Assembly (NCBI GenBank): GCA_015064135.1
Contig: SVSU01000001.1
Coordinates: forward strand, 1-62,809
Source of the DNA: Oscillospiraceae bacterium
Lineage (GTDB): Bacteria; Bacillota; Clostridia; Oscillospirales; CAG-272
Direction: 5' to 3'
DNA length: 62,809 nucleotides
Shown: positions 1 through 62,809 of the stretch, one piece after another
Numbering within the stretch: the stretch's first letter is position 1
How the letters are laid out: each line of letters opens with the position of its first letter
The notes under the pieces: generated by a model
Seen by the model: the letters and a program-made list of their open reading frames with translations, nothing else
Databases searched by the model: none
Told to the model about the DNA's origin: nothing
Translations under genes and position numbers: made by a program

Positions 1-577
1 CAATGTAGCTCTGGGGATTGTCGAGGATGTCGGGGGTGGAGCGATACATATGGGTGCCGGTAGAGCGAATCCACTTGTGAACCTCGTCGCTTCCCCAGTT
101 GCAGGCGGAGAACAGGATCTCCCGTCCGGTAGCCTTCAGTGCCATGGACATTCTGTTGTAAAGAATGGGGCCGTTTGCAAGCTTTGGCTTGTTGCAGTAG
201 TCATATTTGAGAAAATCCACACCCCAGTCGGCGAAGGTTTGGGCATCCTCAAACTCGTGATCGAAGGAGCCGGGGTAATCTGCACAGGTTCTGTACCCTG
301 CACAGGAGTAAATGCCGAATTTCAGACCTTTTGAGTGAACATAATCGGAAAGGGCCTTCATTCCCGATGGAAATTTCACGGGATCGGGCACCAGTCTGCC
401 ATTCTCATCACGGTCACGCATGGCCCAGCAGTCATCAATGACCACATACTCATAGCCTGCATCGCGAAGTCCCTTTTCAACGATGGCGTCGGCAGTTTCA
501 CGGATCACCTGCTCGTTGATGTTTTCACCGAAGGTATTCCATGAATTCCACCCCATAGGGGGAGTTTGTGCGAGCAT
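1..577 (-). CDS. GH27 alpha-galactosidase / alpha-N-acetylgalactosaminidase family protein, paralogue 1 (N-terminal part only; C-terminus lies beyond the window edge)
   Basis: The reverse complement of 575-577 is ATG, followed by MLAQTPPMGWNSWNTFG as in the four complete paralogues. Bases 1-170 are about 80% identical to 3441-3610. An RBS-like ggagat lies upstream at 583-590. Confidence 0.85.
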   Translation of the reverse strand, partial: MLAQTPPMGWNSWNTFGENINEQVIRETADAIVEKGLRDAGYEYVVIDDCWAMRDRDENGRLVPDPVKFPSGMKALSDYVHSKGLKFGIYSCAGYRTCADYPGSFDHEFEDAQTFADWGVDFLKYDYCNKPKLANGPILYNRMSMALKATGREILFSACNWGSDEVHKWIRSTGTHMYRSTPDILDNPQSYI

Positions 578-598
578 TGTGTTATCTCCTTTGTTGAG

Positions 599-1735
599 TT
601 ACTTTTTCTTTGTCAGCTTTACGCGGAAGATCCTGCAGTCGTGGGAGGGGACTTCAGCAAACACTGTTGTGTCTGTCCACTCCAGCGTTTCGCCCGAGAA
701 GATCTCGTACCCTTCAAAGCCGTAGCCTGCTGTGACGGGAATACCGATGTCGTACAGATTCATGCCGGGACGGTACAATCTATCGTTGAAATTGAAGAAA
801 GCGATGATGTATTCGCCGTTTGCCAGATGCTTGAGGAAGATGGGTCTGATCTCCTGATAATCGGGATGCTCCTGATACAGCATGGGTGTGCGCGCTTCGG
901 GGTCACGGGCGATGGAGAGGAGTTCCTCATTCTTCAGCAGTGCCAGGTCGGTTTCGTTGAGCTTAGAGAGATCGGCGCCGATCATGAGGGGAGAGTGGAA
1001 CAGGCACCACAGAGCGAAGTGCATTCTGTATTCCGCATCGGTGCATCCGCCGTTGCCCACGTTACCTGCACCGCGCATACCGACGATGAGCATATCGAGG
1101 TCGTTGAAGCAGCCGGGGAGGGAGTATGCCATCTTGTCGAACTGGCTTTTTGCGATATCCACAAAGGACTGGAAGTTGTCGCTGATGTCGCCTGTGGAAC
1201 GGTAGATGTGCGCACCTGCGGAACGGATCCACTTTTCAACCTCATCACTGCCCCAGTTGCAGGCAGAGAAAAGGATCTCGCGGCCCGTGGACTTCAGCGC
1301 CATTGCCATTCTGTTGTAGAGCATGGGGCCGTCCGACAGCCACGGCTTGAAGCAGAAGTCGTATTTCAGGTAGTCAACACCCCAGTCGGCGAAGGTCTGC
1401 GCATCGATGAATTCATAATCGAAGGAGCCGGGATAGCCTGCGCAGGTACGCACACCTGCACAGGAGTAGATGCCGAATTTCAAGCCCTTGGAGTGGATGT
1501 AGTCGGCGAGAGCTTTCATGCCTGAGGGGAATTTTTCGGGGTCGGCCACCATTCTGCCGTTTTCATCTCTGTCCTCCAGCGCCCAGCAGTCGTCAATGAC
1601 CACATATTCGTAGCCGGCTTCCTTGAGCCCGAGATCGCAGATGGCATCAGCCGTGTCGCGGAGGAGTTTTTCGTCAATTCTTGAACCGAAAGTGTTCCAT
1701 GAGTTCCAACCCATAGGGGGTGTTTGTGCAAGCAT
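599..1735 (-). CDS. GH27 alpha-galactosidase family protein, paralogue 2 (378 aa, no signal peptide)
   Basis: The ORF carries GH27 hallmarks: PPMGWNSWN, YVVIDDCW, LKYDFC and RSTGDISDN. It lies 21 nt downstream of the preceding paralogue and has its own aaggagat RBS. Confidence 0.9.
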   Translation of the reverse strand: MLAQTPPMGWNSWNTFGSRIDEKLLRDTADAICDLGLKEAGYEYVVIDDCWALEDRDENGRMVADPEKFPSGMKALADYIHSKGLKFGIYSCAGVRTCAGYPGSFDYEFIDAQTFADWGVDYLKYDFCFKPWLSDGPMLYNRMAMALKSTGREILFSACNWGSDEVEKWIRSAGAHIYRSTGDISDNFQSFVDIAKSQFDKMAYSLPGCFNDLDMLIVGMRGAGNVGNGGCTDAEYRMHFALWCLFHSPLMIGADLSKLNETDLALLKNEELLSIARDPEARTPMLYQEHPDYQEIRPIFLKHLANGEYIIAFFNFNDRLYRPGMNLYDIGIPVTAGYGFEGYEIFSGETLEWTDTTVFAEVPSHDCRIFRVKLTKKK

Positions 1736-1756
1736 AGTTTTATCTCCTTTGTTTTC

Positions 1757-2881
1757 TTAAATCTTTGTCAGCTTCAGGCGGAACAGTCTGCAGTCGTGCA
1801 TGGGAACATCTACGATGACCCGTTCGCGCTCGCCTTCCAGCTTTTCGCCTGTGAAGATTTCGTATCCCGTAAAGCCGTAGCCGCCGTCATAGGGGAGACC
1901 GACATCGAAAAGTCCCTGATACATGGTGCGGTCGCAGTCGGTGAGATTGAAGAAGGCAAGAATGTATTCGCCGTTTGACAGGTGGCGGAAGAACACGGTT
2001 CTGTCGTCACCGTCGCGGGTCAGCTTCATGGGAGGACGGGCTTCGATGTCCTGATTGATGGAGAGAAGCTCCTTGTTCTTGAGAAGTGCCAGACATTCGT
2101 CGTCGATTTTTGAAAGGTCGCAGCCTATCATGAGAGGGGAATTGAAGAGACACCACATAGCGAAGTGTGTGCGGTATTCCGCCTCCGTGCAGCCGCCCAG
2201 TGCCACGTTTCCGTTGCCGTGCATACCGCAGATGAGCATATCAATGTCGTTGAAGCAGCCGGGGGTGGAGTAGGCAAGATTGTTGAACTGGCTGACGGCG
2301 ATCTCCTTGTAGCTCTGGAAATTGTCGCCGATGTCGCCTGTGGAACGGTAGATGTGCGCGCCTGCGGAACGGATCCACTTTTCAACATCCTCTCTGCCCC
2401 AGTTGCAGGCGGAGAAGAGGATCTCGCGGCCCGTCTGACGGAGAGCCAGTCCCATTCTATGATAGAGAAGAGCACCGTCTGCTCTGCCGGGCTTGTAGCA
2501 AAAGTCGTATTTCAGGTAGTCAACACCCCATTCGGCAAAGGTTTCGGCGTCGATGAATTCGTGGTCGAAGGAGCCGGGGTATTCGGCGCAGGTGAGGAAA
2601 CCGACGCAGGAATAAATACCGAACTTCAGCCCTTTTGAGTGGACGTAATCGGCAAGAGCCTTCATACCGGAGGGGAATTTTTCGGGATTTGCGACAAGGC
2701 GTCCGTTTTCGTCTCTCTTGCGCATGGACCAGCAGTCGTCGATGACAACATATTCATATCCTGCATCACGGAGACCGAGATTTACAATAGCATCGGCGGT
2801 GTCACGGACAACCTGTTCATTTATGTTTTCGCCGAAGGTGTTCCAGGAATTCCAACCCATAGGGGGTGTTTGCACTAACAT
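1757..2881 (-). CDS. GH27 alpha-galactosidase family protein, paralogue 3 (374 aa)
   Basis: It has the same GH27 motif set (PPMGWNSWN, VVIDDCW, LKYDFC, RSTGDIGDN). An RBS aaggagac lies upstream of the start. Confidence 0.9.
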   Translation of the reverse strand: MLVQTPPMGWNSWNTFGENINEQVVRDTADAIVNLGLRDAGYEYVVIDDCWSMRKRDENGRLVANPEKFPSGMKALADYVHSKGLKFGIYSCVGFLTCAEYPGSFDHEFIDAETFAEWGVDYLKYDFCYKPGRADGALLYHRMGLALRQTGREILFSACNWGREDVEKWIRSAGAHIYRSTGDIGDNFQSYKEIAVSQFNNLAYSTPGCFNDIDMLICGMHGNGNVALGGCTEAEYRTHFAMWCLFNSPLMIGCDLSKIDDECLALLKNKELLSINQDIEARPPMKLTRDGDDRTVFFRHLSNGEYILAFFNLTDCDRTMYQGLFDVGLPYDGGYGFTGYEIFTGEKLEGERERVIVDVPMHDCRLFRLKLTKI

Positions 2882-2903
2882 TGTTTTTTGTCTCCTTATT
2901 CTA

Positions 2904-4025
2904 TTAAATCTTCTGGAGCTTCATGCGGTACAGCTTGCAGTCATATGCGGGGACATCGACTTTCAGATAATCCTTGATCAGGCCTGTCTTTTCGCCTGTG
3001 AAGATTTCGTAGCCGCTGAGACCGTAGCCGCTGAAGGAGGGAACGCCAACCTCGGTGAGATCGACAAATGTCATGCCGTCACCCTGATCAGTGAAGTTGA
3101 AGAGCGCAATGAGCAGCTCGTTGTTGGCAAGAACCTTGACGAAGCTCCGACGGTCGCCTCCTCTGATGAAAGCGGCAGTGCGTGCTTCGGGGTCGTTCAG
3201 GATGGAGAGAAGCTCCTTGTTCTTCAGCAGCGCAAGAGTTTCCTCGTCGATGTTGCGGATATCAGCACCGATCATGAGGGGAGACTGATAGAGGCACCAC
3301 AGAGCGAAGTGGGACTTGTACTGAACGGGAGTGCATCCGCCTGCACCAACGTTTCCTTTTCCTCCCATGCCGCAGATCAGCATATCGATGTCGTTGTAGC
3401 AGCCGGGTGCGGAATACGCCAGCTTATCGATCTGGCTTGTGGAAATGTCAATGTAGCTCTGGGGATTGTCGCAGATGTCGCCTGTGGAGCGATACATATG
3501 AGCACCTGTGGAACGGATCCACTTTTCAACCTCGTCGCTGCCCCAGTTGCAGGCGGAGAAGAGGATCTCACGGCCCGTAGCCTTCAGCGCCATGGACATT
3601 CTTCTGTAGAGAGAGGGGCCGTCCACGTGCTTCGGAACATAGCAGAAGTCGTATTTGAGGAAATCCACACCCCAGTCAGCGAAGGTCTGTGCGTCAAGAT
3701 ATTCGTGATCAAAGGAACCGGGGCGGCGTGCACAGGTCATGCAGCCCGCACAGGAGTACATACCGAACTTCAGACCCTTGCTGTGGACATAGTCCGAAAG
3801 AGCCTTCATGCCGGAGGGGAATTTTTCGGGGTCGGGCACCAGTCTGTCGTTTTCGTCTCTTTCGTAAAGGGACCAGCAGTCGTCGATGACCACGTATTCG
3901 TAGCCTGCGTCACGGAGACCCAGATCGACCATGGCATCCGCAATTTCACGGATCACCTGTTCGTTGATCAGGTGACCGAAGGTGTTCCAGGAATTCCAAC
4001 CCATAGGGGGTGTTTGTGCGAGCAT
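2904..4025 (-). CDS. GH27 alpha-galactosidase family protein, paralogue 4 (373 aa)
   Basis: It has the same GH27 motif set. An RBS aaggagat lies upstream of the start. Confidence 0.9.
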   Translation of the reverse strand: MLAQTPPMGWNSWNTFGHLINEQVIREIADAMVDLGLRDAGYEYVVIDDCWSLYERDENDRLVPDPEKFPSGMKALSDYVHSKGLKFGMYSCAGCMTCARRPGSFDHEYLDAQTFADWGVDFLKYDFCYVPKHVDGPSLYRRMSMALKATGREILFSACNWGSDEVEKWIRSTGAHMYRSTGDICDNPQSYIDISTSQIDKLAYSAPGCYNDIDMLICGMGGKGNVGAGGCTPVQYKSHFALWCLYQSPLMIGADIRNIDEETLALLKNKELLSILNDPEARTAAFIRGGDRRSFVKVLANNELLIALFNFTDQGDGMTFVDLTEVGVPSFSGYGLSGYEIFTGEKTGLIKDYLKVDVPAYDCKLYRMKLQKI

Positions 4026-4040
4026 AATTGTATCTCCTTG

Positions 4041-4256
4041 TTATTTAAACAGTGTGCATCCCATATCGCGGAAATGCTCGATTTTTTCACGGAGCAAGTC
4101 CTCCGTTACTCTGTAATATTCTGCAAAACAGGTGAGGCAGAGAAATTCCGTTGCCCCACGGTTCACCATCCGCTTGTAGATGGCGATCTCGTCGTTTGTC
4201 AGCTCTCTTCCGCAGGTTTTGCAGCGGTCGGGAGAGAGTGTTTTGTTAACTTCCAT
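4041..4256 (-). CDS. Small zinc-ribbon protein (71 aa, CxxC...CxxC), function unknown
   Basis: The ORF has two CxxC pairs (CKTCG, CLTCF). It is packed tightly inside the GH27 operon, 15 nt upstream of paralogue 4. Confidence 0.5.
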   Translation of the reverse strand: MEVNKTLSPDRCKTCGRELTNDEIAIYKRMVNRGATEFLCLTCFAEYYRVTEDLLREKIEHFRDMGCTLFK

Positions 4257-4321
4257 TGTTTTTATGTTGTTTCTTGATAGTTGATGATAGAATCACTGCT
4301 TCGGTGAAGCATTTCGGAGAA

Positions 4322-5653
4322 TCATACGATTTTTTCGATGAGCAAAGCATCCCTTGCATTGGCGCGCAGAGATATTCTTCCGTCTGTGATCGTTGTTTCG
4401 TATAGAGGTTCTATGCCTCCGGACGTGATTTTTGAAACCTTGGCTCTCGTAAAGGTGCACTCGGTAATCTCCCGAGATCCGTTGAATCCGTTGTCACTGT
4501 AGAAAACATAGATGTCAGGTCTTATGGTCAGTGGAAGAAGGACAGAGTGTGCATCCTTGAGAGTAATTCCGTTTTTCGAGATCGTCTCGTCTGCGGAACG
4601 GCTTATGATTCCGTCGGAAAAGAACGCTGTCTTGCCGGATTCGTCGTTTTCAATGCCCTCGCGTTTGTGGTCGCAAAGATAGAAATACGGGAGCTGGATC
4701 ATGCAGAATTCGCGGAGGAACGGAGCAATCCATGCATCACCTTCCGCACCCCAGAGATGTTCTCCCTGGATGTTGCCGTAAAACGTATATAGAAAAGCAG
4801 GATCGCCCGGCATTCCTCCCGTAAGTTGCTGAGGAGGGTAGGCAAGGTATTCCTCATCACGGACATTGGTGATCCACCATACAGCCGGGATGCGTCCGAT
4901 GATGTCGATGGGGTATACGGAATGTGTTCGGCAGTATTTGTTGTAGTTATCACGTCCGTCGGGACCTTCACGATAGGCTAACTCGGAGGTGATATCCAGA
5001 CCGCGGGATCTTACATAATCAATGATGCTGCTGCGTGCTTTTTGAGCATCGGCAATATCGACCTCCGGTGCGTTGTTGTAGTAGCACTGGAAGTTGTCCA
5101 CATGGATTGTGCCTGTCTGTGCAGCAGGAATTGAAGCGAGGAATCGCTCGAAACGTCGGCGAAACAGTCCACTGTTCCATTCTTCATAGAACGATATTTT
5201 ATAGCATTCCTTGTCATTGTATTCCTCAATGGGATCGGGGGTACCATCAGGCTTTCGTATCAGCGCACCTGCTGAAAGATAATCTGTGAATTGTTCGGAA
5301 TCCGTATAAGCATCGGTGAAATTGACATGGAAGCTGACCGTGGTGTTGAATCGCTTTGATTCCTCCATGAGCCAAACGAGACTGTCGAGTGCGGTCGCAT
5401 CATCCGGGCGCTTTAAGGCTTTGTTGACTTCGAAAAGATCCGGATACCGATTGTCATGCCCGTTGTACTGCCAGCCGACAAGATAGATGATCTTTGGCAC
5501 ACCGAGAGTCAGCGCATCGGTTTTCTTTATAATATCCAGCGCTCTTTCAAAATTGATTTTGACATTTGAACCGCCATCTTTGTCGGGGACGGCGAGGAAC
5601 ATCTTCATCATCATAGTTTTGGTGTAGTCAAAATTGAACCCGTATTCTGTCAT
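4322..5653 (-). CDS. Putative glycoside hydrolase, GH101/GH129-like (endo-alpha-N-acetylgalactosaminidase-type TIM barrel), 443 aa, no signal peptide
   Basis: The segments IYLVGWQYNGHDNRYPD and SFHVNFTDAYTDSE resemble the remembered GH101 catalytic-domain pattern (KGY..GHD..HPDY, GVHINATEAYPE). The family assignment comes from memory only. Confidence 0.5.
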   Translation of the reverse strand: MTEYGFNFDYTKTMMMKMFLAVPDKDGGSNVKINFERALDIIKKTDALTLGVPKIIYLVGWQYNGHDNRYPDLFEVNKALKRPDDATALDSLVWLMEESKRFNTTVSFHVNFTDAYTDSEQFTDYLSAGALIRKPDGTPDPIEEYNDKECYKISFYEEWNSGLFRRRFERFLASIPAAQTGTIHVDNFQCYYNNAPEVDIADAQKARSSIIDYVRSRGLDITSELAYREGPDGRDNYNKYCRTHSVYPIDIIGRIPAVWWITNVRDEEYLAYPPQQLTGGMPGDPAFLYTFYGNIQGEHLWGAEGDAWIAPFLREFCMIQLPYFYLCDHKREGIENDESGKTAFFSDGIISRSADETISKNGITLKDAHSVLLPLTIRPDIYVFYSDNGFNGSREITECTFTRAKVSKITSGGIEPLYETTITDGRISLRANARDALLIEKIV

Positions 5654-5700
5654 GGTGGACTCCTTTTCTTACCGTCAAGGTGGGGGTGTTTTCCGAAAAA

Positions 5701-6843
5701 TTACTTTTTCAGCTGCAGACGGTAGATCTTGCAGTCGTGGGTGGGAACGTTGGTTTCGAAGAAGTTCTTAACCACACCCTTTGTCCGTTCGCCGGAGAAG
5801 ATTTCGTAGCCCTCGAAGCCGTAGCCGCTGGCAACTGTGATACCCAGGTCGTAAAGCTCAACCTTGAATGCAGCTTCATAGGAATCGTGGAAGTTGAAGA
5901 ACGCCAGGATGTATTCGCCATTAGAGAGGTGCTTGAAGAATACATGGCGGTCGATCCACTGAACCTGAGGATACTGCTGTGCCATTTTTCTGGGGGGACG
6001 TGCTTCGGGGTCCTTCAGGATAGAGAGAAGTTCCTTGTTCTTCAGAAGCTCGATGCAGGCGTCATCCATCTTGGAGAGATCGCCGCCGATCATGAGGGGA
6101 GACTGGAACAGGCACCACAGAGCGAAGTGCATTCTGTATTCGTTGTATGTGCATCCGCCTGCACCTACGTTTCCGTTGCCGTTCATGCCGACGATCAGCA
6201 TATCGAGGTCGTTGTAGCAAGCGGGTGCGGAGTATGCGATCTTTTCGATCTGGCTTTCCATGATGTCACGGAAGCTCTTCAGGTTGTCGCAGATATCGCC
6301 CGTGGAGCGATACATATGGGCACCTGTGGAGCGGATCCACTTTTCGCTTTCGTCAGCCCCCCAGTTGCAGGCGGAGAAGAGGATCTCACGTCCCGTAGCC
6401 TTCAGCGCCATGCTCATTCTGTTGTAGAGGATGGGGCCGTTTGCCAGTTTGGGTCTGTCGCAGTAGTCGTACTTCAGGAAGTCAACTTCCCAATCAGCGA
6501 AGGTCTGGGCGTCGATGAATTCGTAGTCGAAGGAACCGGGATAGCCGTCACAGGTAGTTGTACCTGCGCAGGCGTACATACCGAACTTCAGACCCTTTGA
6601 GTGGATGTAGTCGGCAAGAGCCTTCATGCCGGAGGGGAATTTTTCGGGGTCGGGGATGATGCGTCCGTCAGCACCTCTCTGCATGAGGGACCAGCAGTCG
6701 TCGATTACGACATATTCGTATCCCGCGTCCTTCAGACCGAGATTAACGATGGCATCGGCGGTGTCACGAACAACCTGTTCGTTGATGTTTCTGCCGAATG
6801 TGTTCCAAGAGTTCCATCCCATGGGGGGAGTTTGAGCCAGCAT
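5701..6843 (-). CDS. GH27 alpha-galactosidase family protein, paralogue 5 (380 aa), first gene of the operon
   Basis: It has the GH27 motif set. An RBS aaaggagat and a sigma-A-like promoter lie upstream. Confidence 0.9.
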   Translation of the reverse strand: MLAQTPPMGWNSWNTFGRNINEQVVRDTADAIVNLGLKDAGYEYVVIDDCWSLMQRGADGRIIPDPEKFPSGMKALADYIHSKGLKFGMYACAGTTTCDGYPGSFDYEFIDAQTFADWEVDFLKYDYCDRPKLANGPILYNRMSMALKATGREILFSACNWGADESEKWIRSTGAHMYRSTGDICDNLKSFRDIMESQIEKIAYSAPACYNDLDMLIVGMNGNGNVGAGGCTYNEYRMHFALWCLFQSPLMIGGDLSKMDDACIELLKNKELLSILKDPEARPPRKMAQQYPQVQWIDRHVFFKHLSNGEYILAFFNFHDSYEAAFKVELYDLGITVASGYGFEGYEIFSGERTKGVVKNFFETNVPTHDCKIYRLQLKK

Positions 6844-6915
6844 ATTTTTATCTCCTTTTTTTGGAAAAATTTTTCTTTGTTTTTCATTATTCGATGAGCA
6901 TAATGAGCCATAAAA

Positions 6916-22396: not shown

Positions 22397-22485
22397 GAGA
22401 TACGGGCGGAAAAGAAAATTTGGCTGAAAATCAAGTATTCGACAAATACATCCCCATCCCATAATGGGACAGTGGGACTTTTTTA

Positions 22486-22845
22486 TGACCCGAGGGGGAA
22501 TCGAACCCGGTCGCAATTTCCTTCGGAAACAGCTCCGGGGGTATCTCAAGCCCCACTTGAAATAAAAAAATAACTCCCATGTCTTTGACATGAGAGTTGC
22601 TTTTATGCCCCGAGGTGGAATCGAACCCTGTCGCAATTTCCTTCGGAAATAGCTCCGGGGGTATCTCAAGCCCCACTTGAAATAAAAAAACAACTCCCAT
22701 GTCTTTGACATGAGAGTTGTTTTTATGACCCGAGGGGGAATCGAACCCGGTCGCAATTTCCTTCGGAAACAGCTCCGGGGGTATCTCAAGCCCCACTTGA
22801 AATAAAAAACAACTCCCATGTCTTTGACATGAGAGTTGTTTTTTA
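22486..22845 (-). repeat. Three 120-bp tandem units, each a 67-nt tRNA-like module plus a 13-bp-stem terminator hairpin
   Basis: Units start at 22486, 22606 and 22726; the real tRNA-Glu follows in phase at 22846. The modules span 22486-22552, 22606-22672 and 22726-22792. The hairpins span 22571-22599, 22691-22719 and 22810-22838. Confidence 0.85.
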
Positions 22846-22917
22846 TGACCCGAGGGGGAATCGAACCCCCGTTACTGCCGTGAAAGGGCGGTGTCTTAGC
22901 CGCTTGACCATCGGGCC
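22846..22917 (-). tRNA. tRNA-Glu (UUC), CCA not encoded
   Basis: The sequence GGCCCGATGGTCAAGCGGCTAAGACACCGCCCTTTCACGGCAGTAACGGGGGTTCGATTCCCCCTCGGGTCA forms a cloverleaf with anticodon TTC. The 3' flank is TAAAAA. Confidence 0.9.
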
Positions 22918-22940
22918 TTAAAACACGATTTACCAAAGTT

Positions 22941-23015
22941 TGGTGACCCGAGGGGGAATCGAACCCCCGTTACTGCCGTGAAAGGGCGGTGTCTTAGCCG
23001 CTTGACCATCGGGCC
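22941..23015 (-). tRNA. tRNA-Glu (UUC), CCA encoded
   Basis: Its body is identical to the copy at 22846-22917, and it ends in CCA. Confidence 0.9.
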
Positions 23016-23038
23016 GAGTAACTTTGGTAAAATCGTGT

Positions 23039-23115
23039 TGGTAGCGGAAGTTGGACTTGAACCCACGACCTATCGGGTATGAACCGATTGCTCTAGCCAG
23101 CTGAGCTATTCCGCC
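23039..23115 (-). tRNA. tRNA-Met (CAU), elongator-like, CCA encoded
   Basis: GGCGGAATAGCTCAGCTGGCTAGAGCAATCGGTTCATACCCGATAGGTCGTGGGTTCAAGTCCAACTTCCGCTACCA carries a CAT anticodon loop. Confidence 0.9.
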
Positions 23116-27542: not shown

Positions 27543-28112
27543 ATGGAAAACGAATTGCCGAAAAGAAAACCGACAAGGTTAAAGAATTTTGATTACAGTT
27601 CATCGGGAGCATATTTTTTGACGATATGTACGGAAAACAGGCGTCAGATATTGTCACGTGTTCTTGTAGGGGGCGACGTCCCCGACGCCCCGAAGCACTC
27701 TCAATTGAACGGTGTGCAGGTGTGTTTGTCGCAATATGGAATAATTGCCGATAAATACATAAATAGTATAAATGAATTCTATGAGTGGCTTTGTGTGGAC
27801 AGTTATGTGATTATGCCAAATCATATTCATATATTGCTGTTTGTGAAATCAGAGGATGACTTGTCGGAGCCATGCGGTAACGGGGCGTCGAGGACGTCGC
27901 CCCCTACGGTGAAGCAGCATTCGGCAGTTTCGCGGTTTGTTTCAACATTCAAACGCTTTTGCAACAAGGAATACGGCTGTAATATATGGCAAAGAAGTTT
28001 TTTTGACCATATTATTTGTGGCCGTGAAAATTACAGAAAGCATTTGCGGTATATATTTGACAATCCGATGCGATGGTTTTTTGATGAACTGTATGAAGAA
28101 TGTTCTGAATAA
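27543..28112 (+). CDS. REP-associated tyrosine transposase (RAYT) / IS200-like Y1 HUH transposase
   Basis: It has an HUH motif (MPNHIHILL) and a C-terminal Tyr motif (YRKHLRYIFDNP). The gene and its flanks are markedly AT-richer than the neighbouring sequence. No second IS ORF is present. Confidence 0.8.
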   Translation: MENELPKRKPTRLKNFDYSSSGAYFLTICTENRRQILSRVLVGGDVPDAPKHSQLNGVQVCLSQYGIIADKYINSINEFYEWLCVDSYVIMPNHIHILLFVKSEDDLSEPCGNGASRTSPPTVKQHSAVSRFVSTFKRFCNKEYGCNIWQRSFFDHIICGRENYRKHLRYIFDNPMRWFFDELYEECSE

Positions 28113-60993: not shown

Positions 60994-61041
60994 GGAAAAA
61001 GAAAACCGAGCCATCCGCTTTTTTACAGATAAGCTCGGTCG
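60994..61041 (-). terminator. Intrinsic terminator downstream of the acyl-CoA synthetase gene and its 3' repeats
   Basis: On the minus strand, CGACCGAGC pairs with GCTCGGTT and is followed by TTCTTTTTCC. Confidence 0.55.
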
Positions 61042-61078
61042 TTTGTTTGATGTGATTCCCATGAAAGTTTTTTCTCAT

Positions 61079-61274
61079 GAGTGGGGCGCTTTGGTTACAA
61101 TTTATACTGCACGTTATCCCCAAAGAAGCAGATGGCACATGGGAGAAAAACGGTCGCCCAAAAGACTCTTTCGGAGGCTTTTGGGCGATGAAAGATGGTC
61201 GGTCCCATCTTTCAAGTTTTTTCTCATGAGTGGGGCGCTTTGGTTACAATTTATACTGCACGTTATCCCCACTC
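61079..61274 (-). repeat. Second locus of the reiterated structured element (H1-H2-H3-H1'), minus-strand orientation
   Basis: H1 spans 61228-61274, H2 spans 61189-61214, H3 spans 61154-61188, and a partial H1' spans 61079-61122. The period is 149 nt. H1 begins at the G of the stop codon TGA. Confidence 0.7.
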
Positions 61275-62809
61275 AGGCAGTTTCAATCTTTGAAGCCTCA
61301 ATAAACTCGGGCAGTTTTTCTGCCTCCTCGCGCATCTTGTACTTCAGGATCTTTCCTGCCGCGTTCATGGGGAAACTGTCTACAAATGTCACATATCTGG
61401 GGGTCTTGTGCTTCGCCATGTGGGTCATGACATATTCCTTGATCTCCTCCGCGGTGCACTCCTCGCCCGGCTTCAGGATGACGCACGCCATGATCTCCTC
61501 GCCGTACTGCTTGCTGGGTACGCCGATGACCTGTACGTCGGATACCTTCGGATGGGTGTAGATGAAGTCCTCGATCTCCTTGGGGTAGATGTTCTCGCCG
61601 CCGCGGATGATCATGTCCTTGATTCTGCCCGTGATCTTGTAGTTTCCGTCGGGGAGACGTCTTGCAAGGTCGCCCGTGTGGAGCCAACCGTCCTTGTCGA
61701 TGGCAGCCGCTGTTGCTTCGGGCATCTTGTAGTAGCCCTTCATAATGTTGTAGCCGCGCGCCACGAATTCGCCGTCCACATTGTCGGGCAGCTCCTCGTA
61801 GGTTTCGGGGTCAACGATTTTGCATTCCACACCGAAAATCGCACTTCCAACGGTGTTGACCCTGGTTTCGATGGAGTCCGTGGTCTTTGACATGGTGGTG
61901 GCAGGGGATGCCTCCGTCTGACCGTAGGTAATGCAGATCTCGTCCATGTGCATTTTTGAGATGACCTCCTCCATGACCTTGATGGGACAGGGGGAGCCTG
62001 CCATGATGCCTGTTCTCATGTGGGAAAAGTCGGTCTTGTCGAAGTCCTCGTGACCCAGCATGGCGATAAACATGGTGGGAACGCCGTGGAATGCGGTAAT
62101 CTTCTCCTTTGTGATGCACGCCAGTCCTTTCTTCGGGGAGAAGGCGGGGATGGGAGACATGGTAACACCGTGGGTCATGGACGCGGTCATAGCGAGAACC
62201 ATGCCGAAGCAGTGGAACATGGGCACCTGGATCATCATGCGGTCTGCGGTGGACAGATCCATGCAGTCGCCGATTGCCTTACCGTTGTTGACAACATTGT
62301 AATGTGTCAGCATAACACCCTTGGGGAATCCCGTGGTGCCCGATGTGTACTGCATATTGCATACATCGTGCTTGTTTATCATGGCGGCGCGGCGGTACAC
62401 AGCCTCAACGGGGGTACGCTCTGCCTGTGCCAGCGCTTCTTCCCATGTGTAGCAGCCCGGACGGTCGGATTCGCAGGTGATAACGTTTCTGAGGAAGGGA
62501 AGCCGTCTTGCGTGGAGAGGCTTGCCCTTTTCCAGAGATTTCAGTTCGGGGCAGATCTCGTTGATGATTGCCACATAGTCGGAATCCTTGTAGCCGTCCG
62601 TCATAACAAGGGTGTGTGTGTCGGACTGGCGGAGCAGGTACTCAAGCTCGTGAATCTTGTACGCGGTGTTGACCGTGACCAGCACCGCACCGATCTTTAC
62701 CGTCGCCCAGAATGTGATGTACCACTGAGGCACATTCGTTGCCCAGATGGCAACATGGTCGCCCTGCTTGACCCCCATGGAGATGAGCGCCCTTGCAAAG
62801 GTGTCAACA
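61273..62809 (-). CDS. AMP-binding acyl-CoA synthetase / fatty-acid--CoA ligase (N-terminus beyond the window edge)
   Basis: YTSGTTGFPKGV (the AMP-binding signature), TGDLARR and GGENIYPKEIE are present. The reading frame stays open to position 62809. Confidence 0.9.
   Translation of the reverse strand, partial: VDTFARALISMGVKQGDHVAIWATNVPQWYITFWATVKIGAVLVTVNTAYKIHELEYLLRQSDTHTLVMTDGYKDSDYVAIINEICPELKSLEKGKPLHARRLPFLRNVITCESDRPGCYTWEEALAQAERTPVEAVYRRAAMINKHDVCNMQYTSGTTGFPKGVMLTHYNVVNNGKAIGDCMDLSTADRMMIQVPMFHCFGMVLAMTASMTHGVTMSPIPAFSPKKGLACITKEKITAFHGVPTMFIAMLGHEDFDKTDFSHMRTGIMAGSPCPIKVMEEVISKMHMDEICITYGQTEASPATTMSKTTDSIETRVNTVGSAIFGVECKIVDPETYEELPDNVDGEFVARGYNIMKGYYKMPEATAAAIDKDGWLHTGDLARRLPDGNYKITGRIKDMIIRGGENIYPKEIEDFIYTHPKVSDVQVIGVPSKQYGEEIMACVILKPGEECTAEEIKEYVMTHMAKHKTPRYVTFVDSFPMNAAGKILKYKMREEAEKLPEFIEASKIETA

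Follow-up and report, generated by a model that had tools for sequence, protein, structure and literature searches.

Families of hairpin-forming repeats have been studied in detail in Proteobacteria and streptococci. Most REPs are located downstream of genes, and their termini often provide stop codons (PMC3733652); those placed fewer than 16 nt from a stop codon reduce translation (Liang 2015, summarised in PMC12306157), and mRNA is stabilised by REPs (Newbury 1987, summarised in PMC12306157). Pneumococci carry BOX elements, which are built of modules and have boxB units in tandem; another repeat, SPRITE, resembles a terminator and shows enrichment at 3' ends (PMC3049150). Our search of the literature found no description of hairpin repeat families in the uncultured gut Clostridia that dominate metagenomes. 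Here we analyse a hairpin element that occurs at two loci in a 62,809-nt stretch of Oscillospiraceae DNA (the window), one downstream of an LTA-synthase-like gene on the plus strand (locus A) and the other downstream of an acyl-CoA synthetase gene on the minus strand (locus B). Judged by its sequence, the element looks like a copy of a small, dispersed, non-coding modular repeat family, and the family in turn looks like an undescribed example of a familiar class of bacterial intergenic repeats rather than a novel type of system.

At both loci H1 comes first, followed by a branched module, another H1 and finally a terminator (Table 1), with a repeat period of 153 nt at locus A and 149 nt at locus B. 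More generally, a unit of the family consists of H1, which is a conserved hairpin, followed by a hairpin module whose sequence varies and by a short tail, and units are joined head-to-tail in arrays of one to at least four. The module is either a simple stem-loop (Y) or, within this window, a three-way junction (X) made of the stems P1, H2 and H3. The original prediction had described H1, H2, H3, the partial second H1 and the terminator, and we found that its coordinates and hairpin sequences, the two periods and the 35-nt length of both H3 copies hold at both loci. The first H1 of locus B has an 8-bp stem (GAGTGGGG/CCCCACTC) around an interior of 31 nt, and by itself folds with -17.4 kcal/mol (z -4.0). 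In the second H1 of this locus the 5' GAG is missing, which leaves a stem of just 5 bp (TGGGG/CCCCA), and this H1 plus the 14 nt that follow it (61065-61122) repeats 61214-61271 directly and without a mismatch over 58 nt. This part of locus B is recent. The claim that the similarity does not come from recent duplication stands for locus A against locus B, which align with a mean column identity of 77%, but not for the H1 pair inside locus B. The small hairpin after the second H1 occupies the place expected for a module, and the right edge of the insert at locus B is probably at 61059. The terminator-like hairpin beyond it, which a simple terminator scan missed, is presumably the upstream gene's own terminator. 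Orthologues of this upstream gene are 844 aa long and have AP_endonuc_2, AMP-binding and AMP-binding_C domains; the LTA-synthase-like gene upstream of locus A is called in related contigs with a length of 528 aa and a start at about 16937.

Table 1 Parts of the element at loci A and B and their flanks, in window positions
Feature	Locus	Position	Strand	Remarks
H1 copy 1	A	18512..18558	+	contributes the last two codons and the TAA stop (18521-18523)
Branched module X	A	18561..18642	+	-37.6 kcal/mol, z -6.35
P1	A	18561-18569 pairs with 18634-18642	+	
H2	A	18571-18596	+	
H3	A	18597-18631	+	35 nt
H1 copy 2	A	18665..18711	+	same stem as copy 1, different interior
Simple module Y	A	18712..18760	+	CCGAG, hairpin, then CCGAGGTGCAGCTGAATTT
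Native terminator of LTA-synthase-like gene	A	18778..18826	+	recognisably orthologous to the L080 terminator
Upstream gene, 3' part	B	61273..62809	-	runs past the window end; stop TGA 61273-61275
H1 copy 1	B	61228..61274	-	GAGTGGGGATAACGTG...CGCCCCACTC; 47-nt hairpin
Branched module X (three-way junction)	B	61143..61225	-	-37.2 kcal/mol, z -6.6
P1, closing stem of X	B	61218-61225 pairs with 61143-61150	-	
H2	B	61189-61214	-	TGAAAGATGG/CCATCTTTCA
H3	B	61154-61188	-	35 nt
Unit tail/linker	B	61123..61142	-	CCATGTGCCATCTGCTTCTT; weakly conserved against locus A
Second (partial) H1	B	61079..61122	-	TGGGG...CCCCACTC
Small hairpin after second H1	B	61060..61079	-	CATGAGA...TTTCATG; -6.2 kcal/mol, z -3.45
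Intrinsic-terminator-like hairpin	B	60994..61041 (hairpin about 60996-61040)	-	long hairpin, then UUUUCUUUUU

Structure at both loci is more than chance. The whole of locus B folds with -103.5 kcal/mol (z = -7.55) and the whole of locus A has z = -5.33; taken by themselves, H1 reaches about -17 kcal/mol (z about -3.4 to -4) and X about -37 kcal/mol (z about -6.5). The stems had been reported to differ between the loci while keeping their pairing, and this proved to be stronger than claimed. In a MAFFT alignment of the two X modules, 97.9% of the cells in H2 and H3 are paired, with six pairs in which both sides have changed and no one-sided change, and when we slid the partner by 1-3 columns as a control, only 38-56% of cells paired. 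A closing stem that was absent from the original prediction, P1, joins H2 and H3 into the three-way junction. A structure-aware count that includes P1 gave 32 helix positions for locus A against locus B, 22 of them identical, ten differing on both sides and none differing on one side only. Nine of the ten two-sided differences are still Watson-Crick, and the remaining one is a mismatch in A that is paired in B. We also redistributed the 20 changed stem bases at random 200,000 times, and no placement preserved all pairs. Since every stem difference is matched on the other arm, something preserves the hairpins, and the A/B pair, with ten matched and no unmatched changes, offers a clean natural test of selection on stem pairing.

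The original prediction attributed this to selection on the fold as RNA or single-stranded DNA. Its first half, that the hairpins are preserved, stands, whereas the choice of cause does not follow: since the core stems are Watson-Crick throughout, with no G-U pair, and the sense and antisense strands fold equally well both as RNA and as DNA, a role as RNA, a role as single-stranded DNA and simple maintenance of the palindromes cannot be separated on present evidence. It is possible, though we think it unlikely, that the element is a structured RNA selected for its fold, with X as the functional part of a cis-regulatory 3'-UTR element or a processed small RNA. Such an RNA would be consistent with the changes on both sides at 10 of 32 helix positions and on one side at none, with the z-scores of X, and with arrays that are co-oriented with the gene in five of five cases, independent of replication strand; two minor hairpins, Y at locus A and the one after the second H1 at locus B, moreover use G-U pairs on the sense strand. 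The X junctions, however, have no conserved unpaired bases and keep neither length nor sequence, and the antisense strand of the core stems folds just as well. In addition, there are only two copies of X (A and B), neither of them at an orthologous locus, other arrays have a simple hairpin in place of X, and a search of Rfam gave nothing at the gathering threshold, the best matches to the element having E above 0.3, far below threshold. We also considered a hammerhead-type three-way junction and a K-turn in H1, and rejected the former for its lack of conserved core bases and the latter because no GA adjoins the stem.

Quasi-palindrome correction is an established mutational process, and hairpin-templated repair or strand switching that copies one arm to the other could produce paired changes without any selection. 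As such copying would have it, every changed pair has switched completely from one Watson-Crick pair to another, G-U intermediates are absent and both strands fold symmetrically, but we regard this origin as doubtful, as it leaves unexplained why arrays are so strictly co-oriented with genes, why the non-palindromic interior of H1 is conserved and why P1, whose arms are about 70 nt apart, is paired. X might instead be a pair of back-to-back intrinsic terminators, with H3 and a T-run in the sense direction and H2 and an A-run in the antisense direction, P1 being a by-product of the flanking A/T runs. At both loci the terminator scan calls antisense H2 plus its T-run, which qualifies as a GC-rich hairpin with a U-run, and sense H3 has a GC-rich base followed by TTTTT. 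Yet this T-run begins 3-5 nt beyond H3, a spacing that suits an intrinsic terminator poorly, the H2 stem is AT-rich at its base, a full terminator still lies 3' of the array at both loci and H1 would have no explanation, so that we find the idea improbable. The same features define how the element relates to SPRITE: both have a hairpin followed by a T-rich tract, are dispersed and are enriched at gene 3' ends (PMC3049150), but in our element only the H2/H3 part is terminator-like and a separate full terminator lies 3' of the array.

The element is absent from all nine orthologous loci that were fetched, of which seven belong to the acyl-CoA synthetase gene and two to the LTA-synthase-like gene. 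The seven synthetase orthologues (88-96% protein identity) end with the same ...IETA and stop, and the sequence beyond is unrelated; for the empty-site comparison at locus B, no relative has both flanks in common. At locus A, a 76% orthologue of the gene (L080) ends with ...TTE TAA and has a terminator 6 nt after the stop codon, which aligns with the terminator 3' of the array. Comparison of these loci identifies the element as an insertion, lying at locus A between the gene's last codons and the gene's own terminator. The insert there begins with GAGTGGGG and finishes with ...GAATTTGTG, and would comprise 249 nt (18512-18760), ending with Y. Its presence at some loci and absence from others suggest that the element may be mobile.

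We found no terminal inverted repeats bracketing the arrays, as the 8-bp arms enclose H1 only, and no transposase or recombinase associated with the element. There was no convincing target-site duplication, just a 2-nt GA ambiguity at the junctions: array starts read GA(G) and the right flank reads GA(A) at locus A, in array L001 and, by inference, at locus B, a match of two bases only, and array L002 has two extra bases between the array and the right-flank GA. The empty sites reconstructed for A and B both read CT^GAA. A mobile element with terminal repeats and target-site duplications had been named as the finding that would speak against a selected fold, and this is borne out in part, in that we see a dispersed inserted repeat with nine empty loci and other arrays, but not in its bracketing inverted repeats or target-site duplications. 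In size (100-250 bp), highly base-paired predicted transcripts, empty and filled sites among relatives and a capacity to fuse to or end reading frames, the element is like the bacterial MITEs Correia/NEMIS, ERIC, RUP and YPAL (PMC2229807); it differs from them in having no terminal inverted repeats around the insert, no clear target-site duplication and units that run head-to-tail. A simple inversion between oppositely oriented elements was considered for the gene order of the relatives and rejected, as the gene orders do not fit.

The 8-bp stem of H1 is nearly invariant across 11 copies, four in the window, six in one uncultured Eubacteriales MAG and one in a metagenome contig. The MAG has no other DNA similarity to the window, and its arrays sit 3' of unrelated genes. 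Conservation extends to the borders of H1, ATAAY and AAAMCG, and to its non-palindromic interior. Within every array the H1 copies lie on the same strand, head to tail; some arrays have three or more units and others are single units with one H1. Modules of the Y type, which at locus A form only a weak hairpin (-7.4 kcal/mol, z +0.5), are also found 3' of H1 in the MAG arrays and in metagenome contig L013. This contig and a 14.5-kb JGI contig encoding the called protein P0242 hold further members of the family, P0242 being an antisense reading of at least four Y-type units with 93-nt spacing. A full HMMER search with the antisense ORF recovered P0242 as its one real relative, and two long repetitive proteins that also matched were taken as unrelated; a word-indexed protein search with the same ORF gave nothing.

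We also scanned sequence collections with the H1 pattern. In the genome scan it found one MAG and one chance match in coding sequence (L004), and in the metagenome scan one of 20 matches was a member (L013), the other 19 being unrelated GGGGAGT-repeat hairpins on soil contigs. None of the 45 matches in viral contigs was a member, BLAST of the element against plasmids and phages gave no match, and an H1 covariance model run on 188 kb of loci found no diverged copies. The density in the window is two loci per 62.8 kb. A CRISPR-like array was rejected because the X 'spacers' at A and B are homologous to each other, and no cas or other mobile-element genes were present among the 35 window ORFs scanned. 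An integron attC site was likewise rejected, since GGATAAC and GGATAAT misfit RYYYAAC and the far end lacks GTTRRRY; there was no integrase among the window ORFs scanned. A promoter formed by the tail plus GATAAT was dismissed because it is present only at locus A.

Set against BOX by description, the family shows a likeness in architecture only. Like BOX of S. pneumoniae and S. suis, it belongs to Firmicutes, is modular, its internal modules (boxB in BOX) being variable in number and arranged head-to-tail, has module types that differ between species and modules predicted to fold independently, mirrors the coding strand in its orientation and is enriched downstream of genes (PMC3049150). Unlike BOX, the H1 arrays have no boxA/boxC-like terminal modules that pair with each other, and their unit is a conserved hairpin plus a variable hairpin.

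The arrays hold a regular position relative to genes. All five with a clear upstream gene (the two window loci and three MAG arrays) share its orientation, and these upstream genes are mutually unrelated. Counted from the first base of H1, the positions of the stop codon are +9, -1, +9, -6 and -40, and four of the five arrays begin 0-6 nt from it. Two of the genes have GAG TGG GGA TAA from the element in place of their own last codons, and H1 provides stops in two of the three frames. The original prediction that the element takes the same place and orientation relative to the upstream gene at both loci thus extends to the three MAG arrays, and the reported overlap of the locus B TGA with the start of H1 was confirmed, its GA being the first two bases of H1; at locus A, by contrast, the stop is a TAA within H1 and not an overlapping TGA. 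GC skew stays positive from one end of the window to the other, yet A and B occupy opposite strands (n = 2), so that orientation follows the gene and not replication. The starts at a stop codon in four of five arrays, the GAG TGG GGA TAA ends, the stops in H1 and the CT^GAA sites would also allow the H1 arrays to be a new kind of element, able to move or expand and targeted to sites of translation termination instead of just being tolerated there, with X as a selected three-way-junction RNA or single-stranded DNA cargo, a reading to which we give little credence.

On balance, and with somewhat more confidence than doubt, we favour a modular dispersed 3'-end repeat with a cis role in the 3' untranslated region as the best explanation as a whole; the function is proposed from sequence features and from the behaviour of known repeats. 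The array would be transcribed within the 3' untranslated region of the upstream gene, where its stable hairpins could act in cis as barriers to 3'-to-5' exonucleases, and perhaps as partial or bidirectional terminators. As H1 spans the stop codon, it may also slow translation termination of the upstream gene. That use, or a tolerance of hairpins but not of half-hairpins, would maintain pairing while the stem sequence drifts, and the invariant H1 stem with its ATAAY/AAAMCG borders might be a handle that is recognised by the process that spreads or expands arrays.

A cis role of this kind would parallel the REP/BIME sequences of Proteobacteria, which are also small extragenic hairpins, mostly just downstream of genes, often touch or provide the stop codon, are clustered in mosaic arrays with other short motifs and are co-transcribed, as the H1 arrays probably are. 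The family allows a test of whether expression in Firmicutes is tuned by a hairpin over the stop codon, an effect that REPs are reported to have in E. coli. The host differs, being Clostridia for the H1 arrays, and the repeats themselves differ in several respects. H1 is 47 nt long and has an interior of 31 nt, without self-complementarity, inside a stem of 8 bp, whereas a REP is an imperfect palindrome of 20-40 nt that is mostly stem. H1 has no conserved GTAG or CGTC tag, and the five bases before it vary: CGTC precedes H1 only in two L003 copies, and GTAG occurs only inside some interiors. Neighbouring palindromes have opposite orientations in BIMEs, whereas all H1 copies have the same orientation, which also sets them apart from REPINs.

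A further difference from the REP/RAYT pair concerns the transposase. The original prediction had suggested testing whether the RAYT encoded at 27543-28112 binds single-stranded H1 DNA. This gene is indeed RAYT-like (NCBIfam REP_Tyr_transpos E = 3.7e-17; PDB 4er8 E = 2e-5), with a score under the curated cut-offs, but the proposed link found no support, as there is no H1 near the gene and its ORF contains its own GTAG-tagged inverted pair (27666-27692 and 27881-27907), unrelated to H1. The result bears on whether the element could be a single-stranded DNA element in which H1 is recognised by an HUH/Y1 enzyme, either the RAYT-like protein or an IS200/IS605-type TnpA encoded elsewhere in the genome, and H1...H1 forms the left and right ends of a transposase-less derivative. 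We consider this quite unlikely. Hairpins with identical stems on the same strand do bracket a cargo, as at IS200/IS605 ends, the invariance of the H1 stem and bordering bases across genomes would suit recognition by a protein, the DNA folds well on either strand and a RAYT-like gene is present in the window. Apart from the unlinked, low-scoring RAYT-like gene and the lack of a GTAG/CGTC tag at H1, however, A and B are in the same replichore but on different strands, and arrays of at least three units and units with a single H1 misfit a two-ended element. The likeness to IS200/IS605-derived transposase-less elements is thus limited to the pair of hairpins, on one strand and with the same stem, that enclose a short cargo, and the H1 arrays differ in their multi-unit and single-hairpin forms, in being without a cognate Y1 transposase and in showing no replication-strand bias, judged on two window copies only (n = 2).

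Coding potential was considered as well. Two sense ORFs that run across H1 and X, 18514-18657 (+) with 47 codons and 61114-61272 (-) with 52, have the same relative frame, which raised the possibility of a small protein. We find this very improbable: the two peptides have no 5-residue word in common, the 149-nt period is not a multiple of three, in the MAG copies a stop closes the frame seven codons into H1, and matched double changes in the stems are the opposite of codon-level constraint. The family nevertheless leaves marks on annotation and assembly. It seeds spurious ORFs, of which P0242 is an example, and same-strain metagenome contigs start inside or just after the element, which suggests that it may break assemblies. 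It also alters the ends of genes, and we found the same ...EWG end on two unrelated proteins.

At locus B, the array that runs down the minus strand 3' of the acyl-CoA synthetase gene, the stop codon of that gene overlaps the start of the conserved 47-nt hairpin H1, as the original prediction had it, and the sequences it quoted for the first locus (locus A, on the plus strand from 18512, 3' of an LTA-synthase-like gene) were correct on re-reading. A direct-repeat finder reproduced the repeat periods of 149 nt at locus B and 153 nt at 18493-18718. One point needs correcting: at locus A the stop codon of the gene is a TAA inside H1 (GAG TGG GGA TAA) rather than a TGA at its start. A perfect 58-nt repeat within locus B (61214-61271 identical to 61065-61122) shows a recent event there.

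Features of locus B, listed in the direction of the upstream gene
Feature	Position	Strand	Basis
Stop codon TGA of the upstream ORF	61273-61275	-	sequence reading
H1, first copy, 5' arm GAGTGGGG from 61274	61228-61274	-	sequence reading
H2, TGAAAGATGG-GACCGA-CCATCTTTCA	61189-61214	-	sequence reading
H3, 35 nt	61154-61188	-	sequence reading
Second H1, without the first GAG, beyond a linker	61079-61122	-	sequence reading
Long hairpin, then UUUUCUUUUU	~60996-61040	-	sequence reading and fold

Folding gave -103.5 kcal/mol (z = -7.55) for the whole of locus B and a z of -5.33 for the whole of locus A. At both loci an A-rich stretch 5' of H2 pairs with a T-rich stretch 3' of H3, forming a stem, P1, that was absent from the original prediction. 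It makes a three-way junction of ~83 nt out of H2 and H3 (-37 kcal/mol, z ~ -6.5 at both loci), the branched module that we call X. On a plain MAFFT alignment of the two loci, 97.9% of the H2 and H3 cells were paired, with six two-sided and no one-sided changes, as against only 38-56% in a control with slid partners. P1 has to be counted in a structure-aware register instead; with it included, the 32 helix positions comprised 22 that were identical, nine two-sided switches and one mismatch made into a pair, with no one-sided changes; when the same 20 changed bases were placed at random 200,000 times, no placement retained all pairs. The compensatory changes proposed between the two loci are real, and the case for them is stronger than was claimed. 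Known copies number only two for X and eleven for H1.

These paired changes had been read as selection on the fold, as RNA or single-stranded DNA. Hairpin-templated correction of quasi-palindromes is a further process able to yield paired changes. All pairs in H1, P1, H2 and H3 are Watson-Crick (G-U pairs are confined to two weak accessory hairpins), the antisense strand folds as well as the sense strand both as RNA and as DNA, and the X junctions have no conserved unpaired bases. The paired changes are thus compatible with three explanations: that selection acts on the transcript, that it acts on single-stranded DNA, or that quasi-palindromes are corrected.

Orthologs of the locus A gene and of the synthetase gene show the element to be an insertion. 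The 76% ortholog of the locus A gene ends ...TTE TAA, and its terminator begins 6 nt on. When 18512-18760 is removed, the window reads ...ACA ACT^GAA CCG TAA, and the terminator after it can be aligned with that of the ortholog. The 249-nt array therefore separates the last codons of the gene from its native terminator, and it altered the protein end from a predicted ...TTEP to ...TTEWG. For locus B we infer an empty site reading ...GCC T^GA ATCACATC... and then the terminator, with an insert at 61274-61059; no relative shares the right flank, so the right edge there is putative, and so is the GA motif at the junctions. Synthetase orthologs at seven loci (88-96% identity) have in common ...IETA and a stop, and then continue into unrelated sequence, different in each, with an IS transposase in one of the seven; the synthetase 3' flank is a hotspot for small insertions in this lineage. 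These flanks hold a GTAG-tagged inverted pair nested in a longer inverted repeat (TATGGGGCTGTCGCA...TGCGACACCCCCATA; L025, 10080-10300), an IS with a DDE_Tnp_1 transposase (L085, 4927-6027) and other perfect hairpins (L026, 11375-11440; L086, 2755-2830). In the relative represented by L025 (96%), the CNNM and CBAH genes directly follow the synthetase gene; in the window both adjoin locus A, ~39 kb away (18-23 kb against 59-62.8 kb), which places loci A and B near rearrangement breakpoints. A simple inversion between the two loci did not reproduce the relative's gene order.

An exact-pattern scan for H1 over one genome per species found members in a single uncultured Eubacteriales MAG, which has no DNA similarity to the window outside the repeat. 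There, three tandem units lie 3' of a glycoside-hydrolase-like gene, whose protein is ended by the TAA within H1 (...IEWG); a single unit lies 3 nt past the guaA stop, and at least two units lie 37 nt past the stop of a glycosyltransferase-like gene. Another H1 unit is on one metagenome contig (L013), and P0242, a called "protein" on a JGI contig, came up in a full HMMER search whose query was the antisense reading of locus A; it is the antisense translation of the simple one-hairpin module, in four repeats spaced 31 residues. The eleven H1 copies hardly differ in their 8-bp stem or in the ATAAY and AAAMCG that border it, but vary in the remaining interior; 3' of H1 follow NCGAG, a hairpin with a genome-specific stem sequence, CCGAGGTGCAGCT and a short tail. 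X takes the place of this hairpin, and CTGAATTT recurs in its tail and in the simple module of that locus; we therefore regard X as the same module in branched form.

Where an array has several units, the 3' arm of an H1 can also bind the 5' arm of the H1 that follows, enclosing the intervening module, so that arrays could switch between two foldings; at L013 (40-136, minus strand) the alternative pairing of CGCCCCACTC with GAGTGGGGCG (10 bp) beats H1 itself. The guaA end in the MAG (L002, 2637-2655, minus strand), ATT GAG TGG TGC TGA (...IEWC), resembles the array linker and H1 start ATT GAG TGG GGA TAA of L001 and L003, and ATTGAGTGGTGGTAATA, a degenerate H1 start where contig L003 ends, is also like it; the likeness may be chance, or a hint at the origin or target of H1. 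Several same-strain metagenome contigs (L029, L034 and L031-L033) have their position 1 within the element or directly past it; L029 starts at GTGGGG of H1 and L034 in the simple module. Such starts would fit a repeat that breaks short-read assemblies, although the local 58-nt repeat alone could explain locus B.

Five arrays have a clear upstream gene; all five are co-oriented with it and start 0-40 nt from its stop codon, four of them within 6 nt. GC skew is positive throughout the window and loci A and B are on opposite strands, so orientation, in these two copies, tracks transcription and not replication. Sequence comparison shows a modular, hairpin-rich repeat that was inserted in the space from stop codon to terminator and is co-oriented with the gene; that it actively homes to stop sites seems very improbable. 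The array would be transcribed as a 3' UTR, in which H1 (-17 kcal/mol) and X (-37 kcal/mol) would be barriers to 3' exonucleases, and H3 with its T-run on the sense strand and H2 with its T-run on the antisense strand may cause partial termination in both directions. E. coli REPs <16 nt from a stop codon are reported to hinder termination (Liang 2015, as summarised in PMC12306157), and by analogy a hairpin beginning at the stop codon may do so here. REP termini can supply stop codons, and REPs lie mainly downstream of genes (PMC3733652); pneumococci have both modular arrays and terminator-like repeats (PMC3049150). BOX elements are closest by architecture (head-to-tail modules, Firmicutes) and REP/BIME by position. 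The element does not pass the defining tests of a REP, BIME/REPIN, MITE, IS200/IS605 derivative, CRISPR or attC, and it had no match in phage, plasmid or viral collections or in Rfam, the last searched at loci A and B with gathering and permissive thresholds. We rate it a new family of an already known kind, the small interspersed hairpin repeats.

The ORF at 27543-28112 (plus strand) is RAYT-like (NCBIfam REP_Tyr_transpos, E = 3.7e-17, 62.6 bits against a cut-off of 80) and also matches PDB 4er8; H1 does not flank it. Two GTAG-tagged, REP-like hairpins of 27 nt (27666-27692 and 27881-27907) lie within its reading frame as an inverted pair; they are 96% complementary, lie 188 nt apart and bracket the HIH motif region. 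This arrangement reads like a REPIN within a RAYT-like gene, with the frame intact. GTAG-tagged inverted pairs are present in a relative too, and it is plausible that they, not H1, are the partners of the RAYT-like protein.

Otherwise the window is unremarkable chromosomal DNA from a Clostridia bacterium, with valS and its T-box leader, clpP, clpX, the trigger factor gene, mreB, SRP RNA and sporulation genes. The genes upstream of the two loci are unrelated, with AP_endonuc_2 and AMP-binding domains at locus B (nearest named relative Ligaoa zhengdingensis, Oscillospiraceae, 86% protein identity) and a sulfatase/LTA-synthase-family protein at locus A. Positions 1-6900 encode Melibiase_2 (alpha-galactosidase-like) proteins from five tandem paralogous units of ~1.15 kb each, 71-80% identical. 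Directly downstream of tRNA-Met, tRNA-Glu and tRNA-Glu (22846-23115), three tandem 120-nt units (22481-22840, minus strand) each consist of a terminator-like hairpin and a segment that has the final ~25 nt of tRNA-Glu(UUC) (GGGTTCGATTCCCCCTCGGGTCA) at its end. They resemble either repeated duplications of a tRNA 3' end, of the type that integration or excision at a tRNA gene leaves behind, or a tandem duplication.
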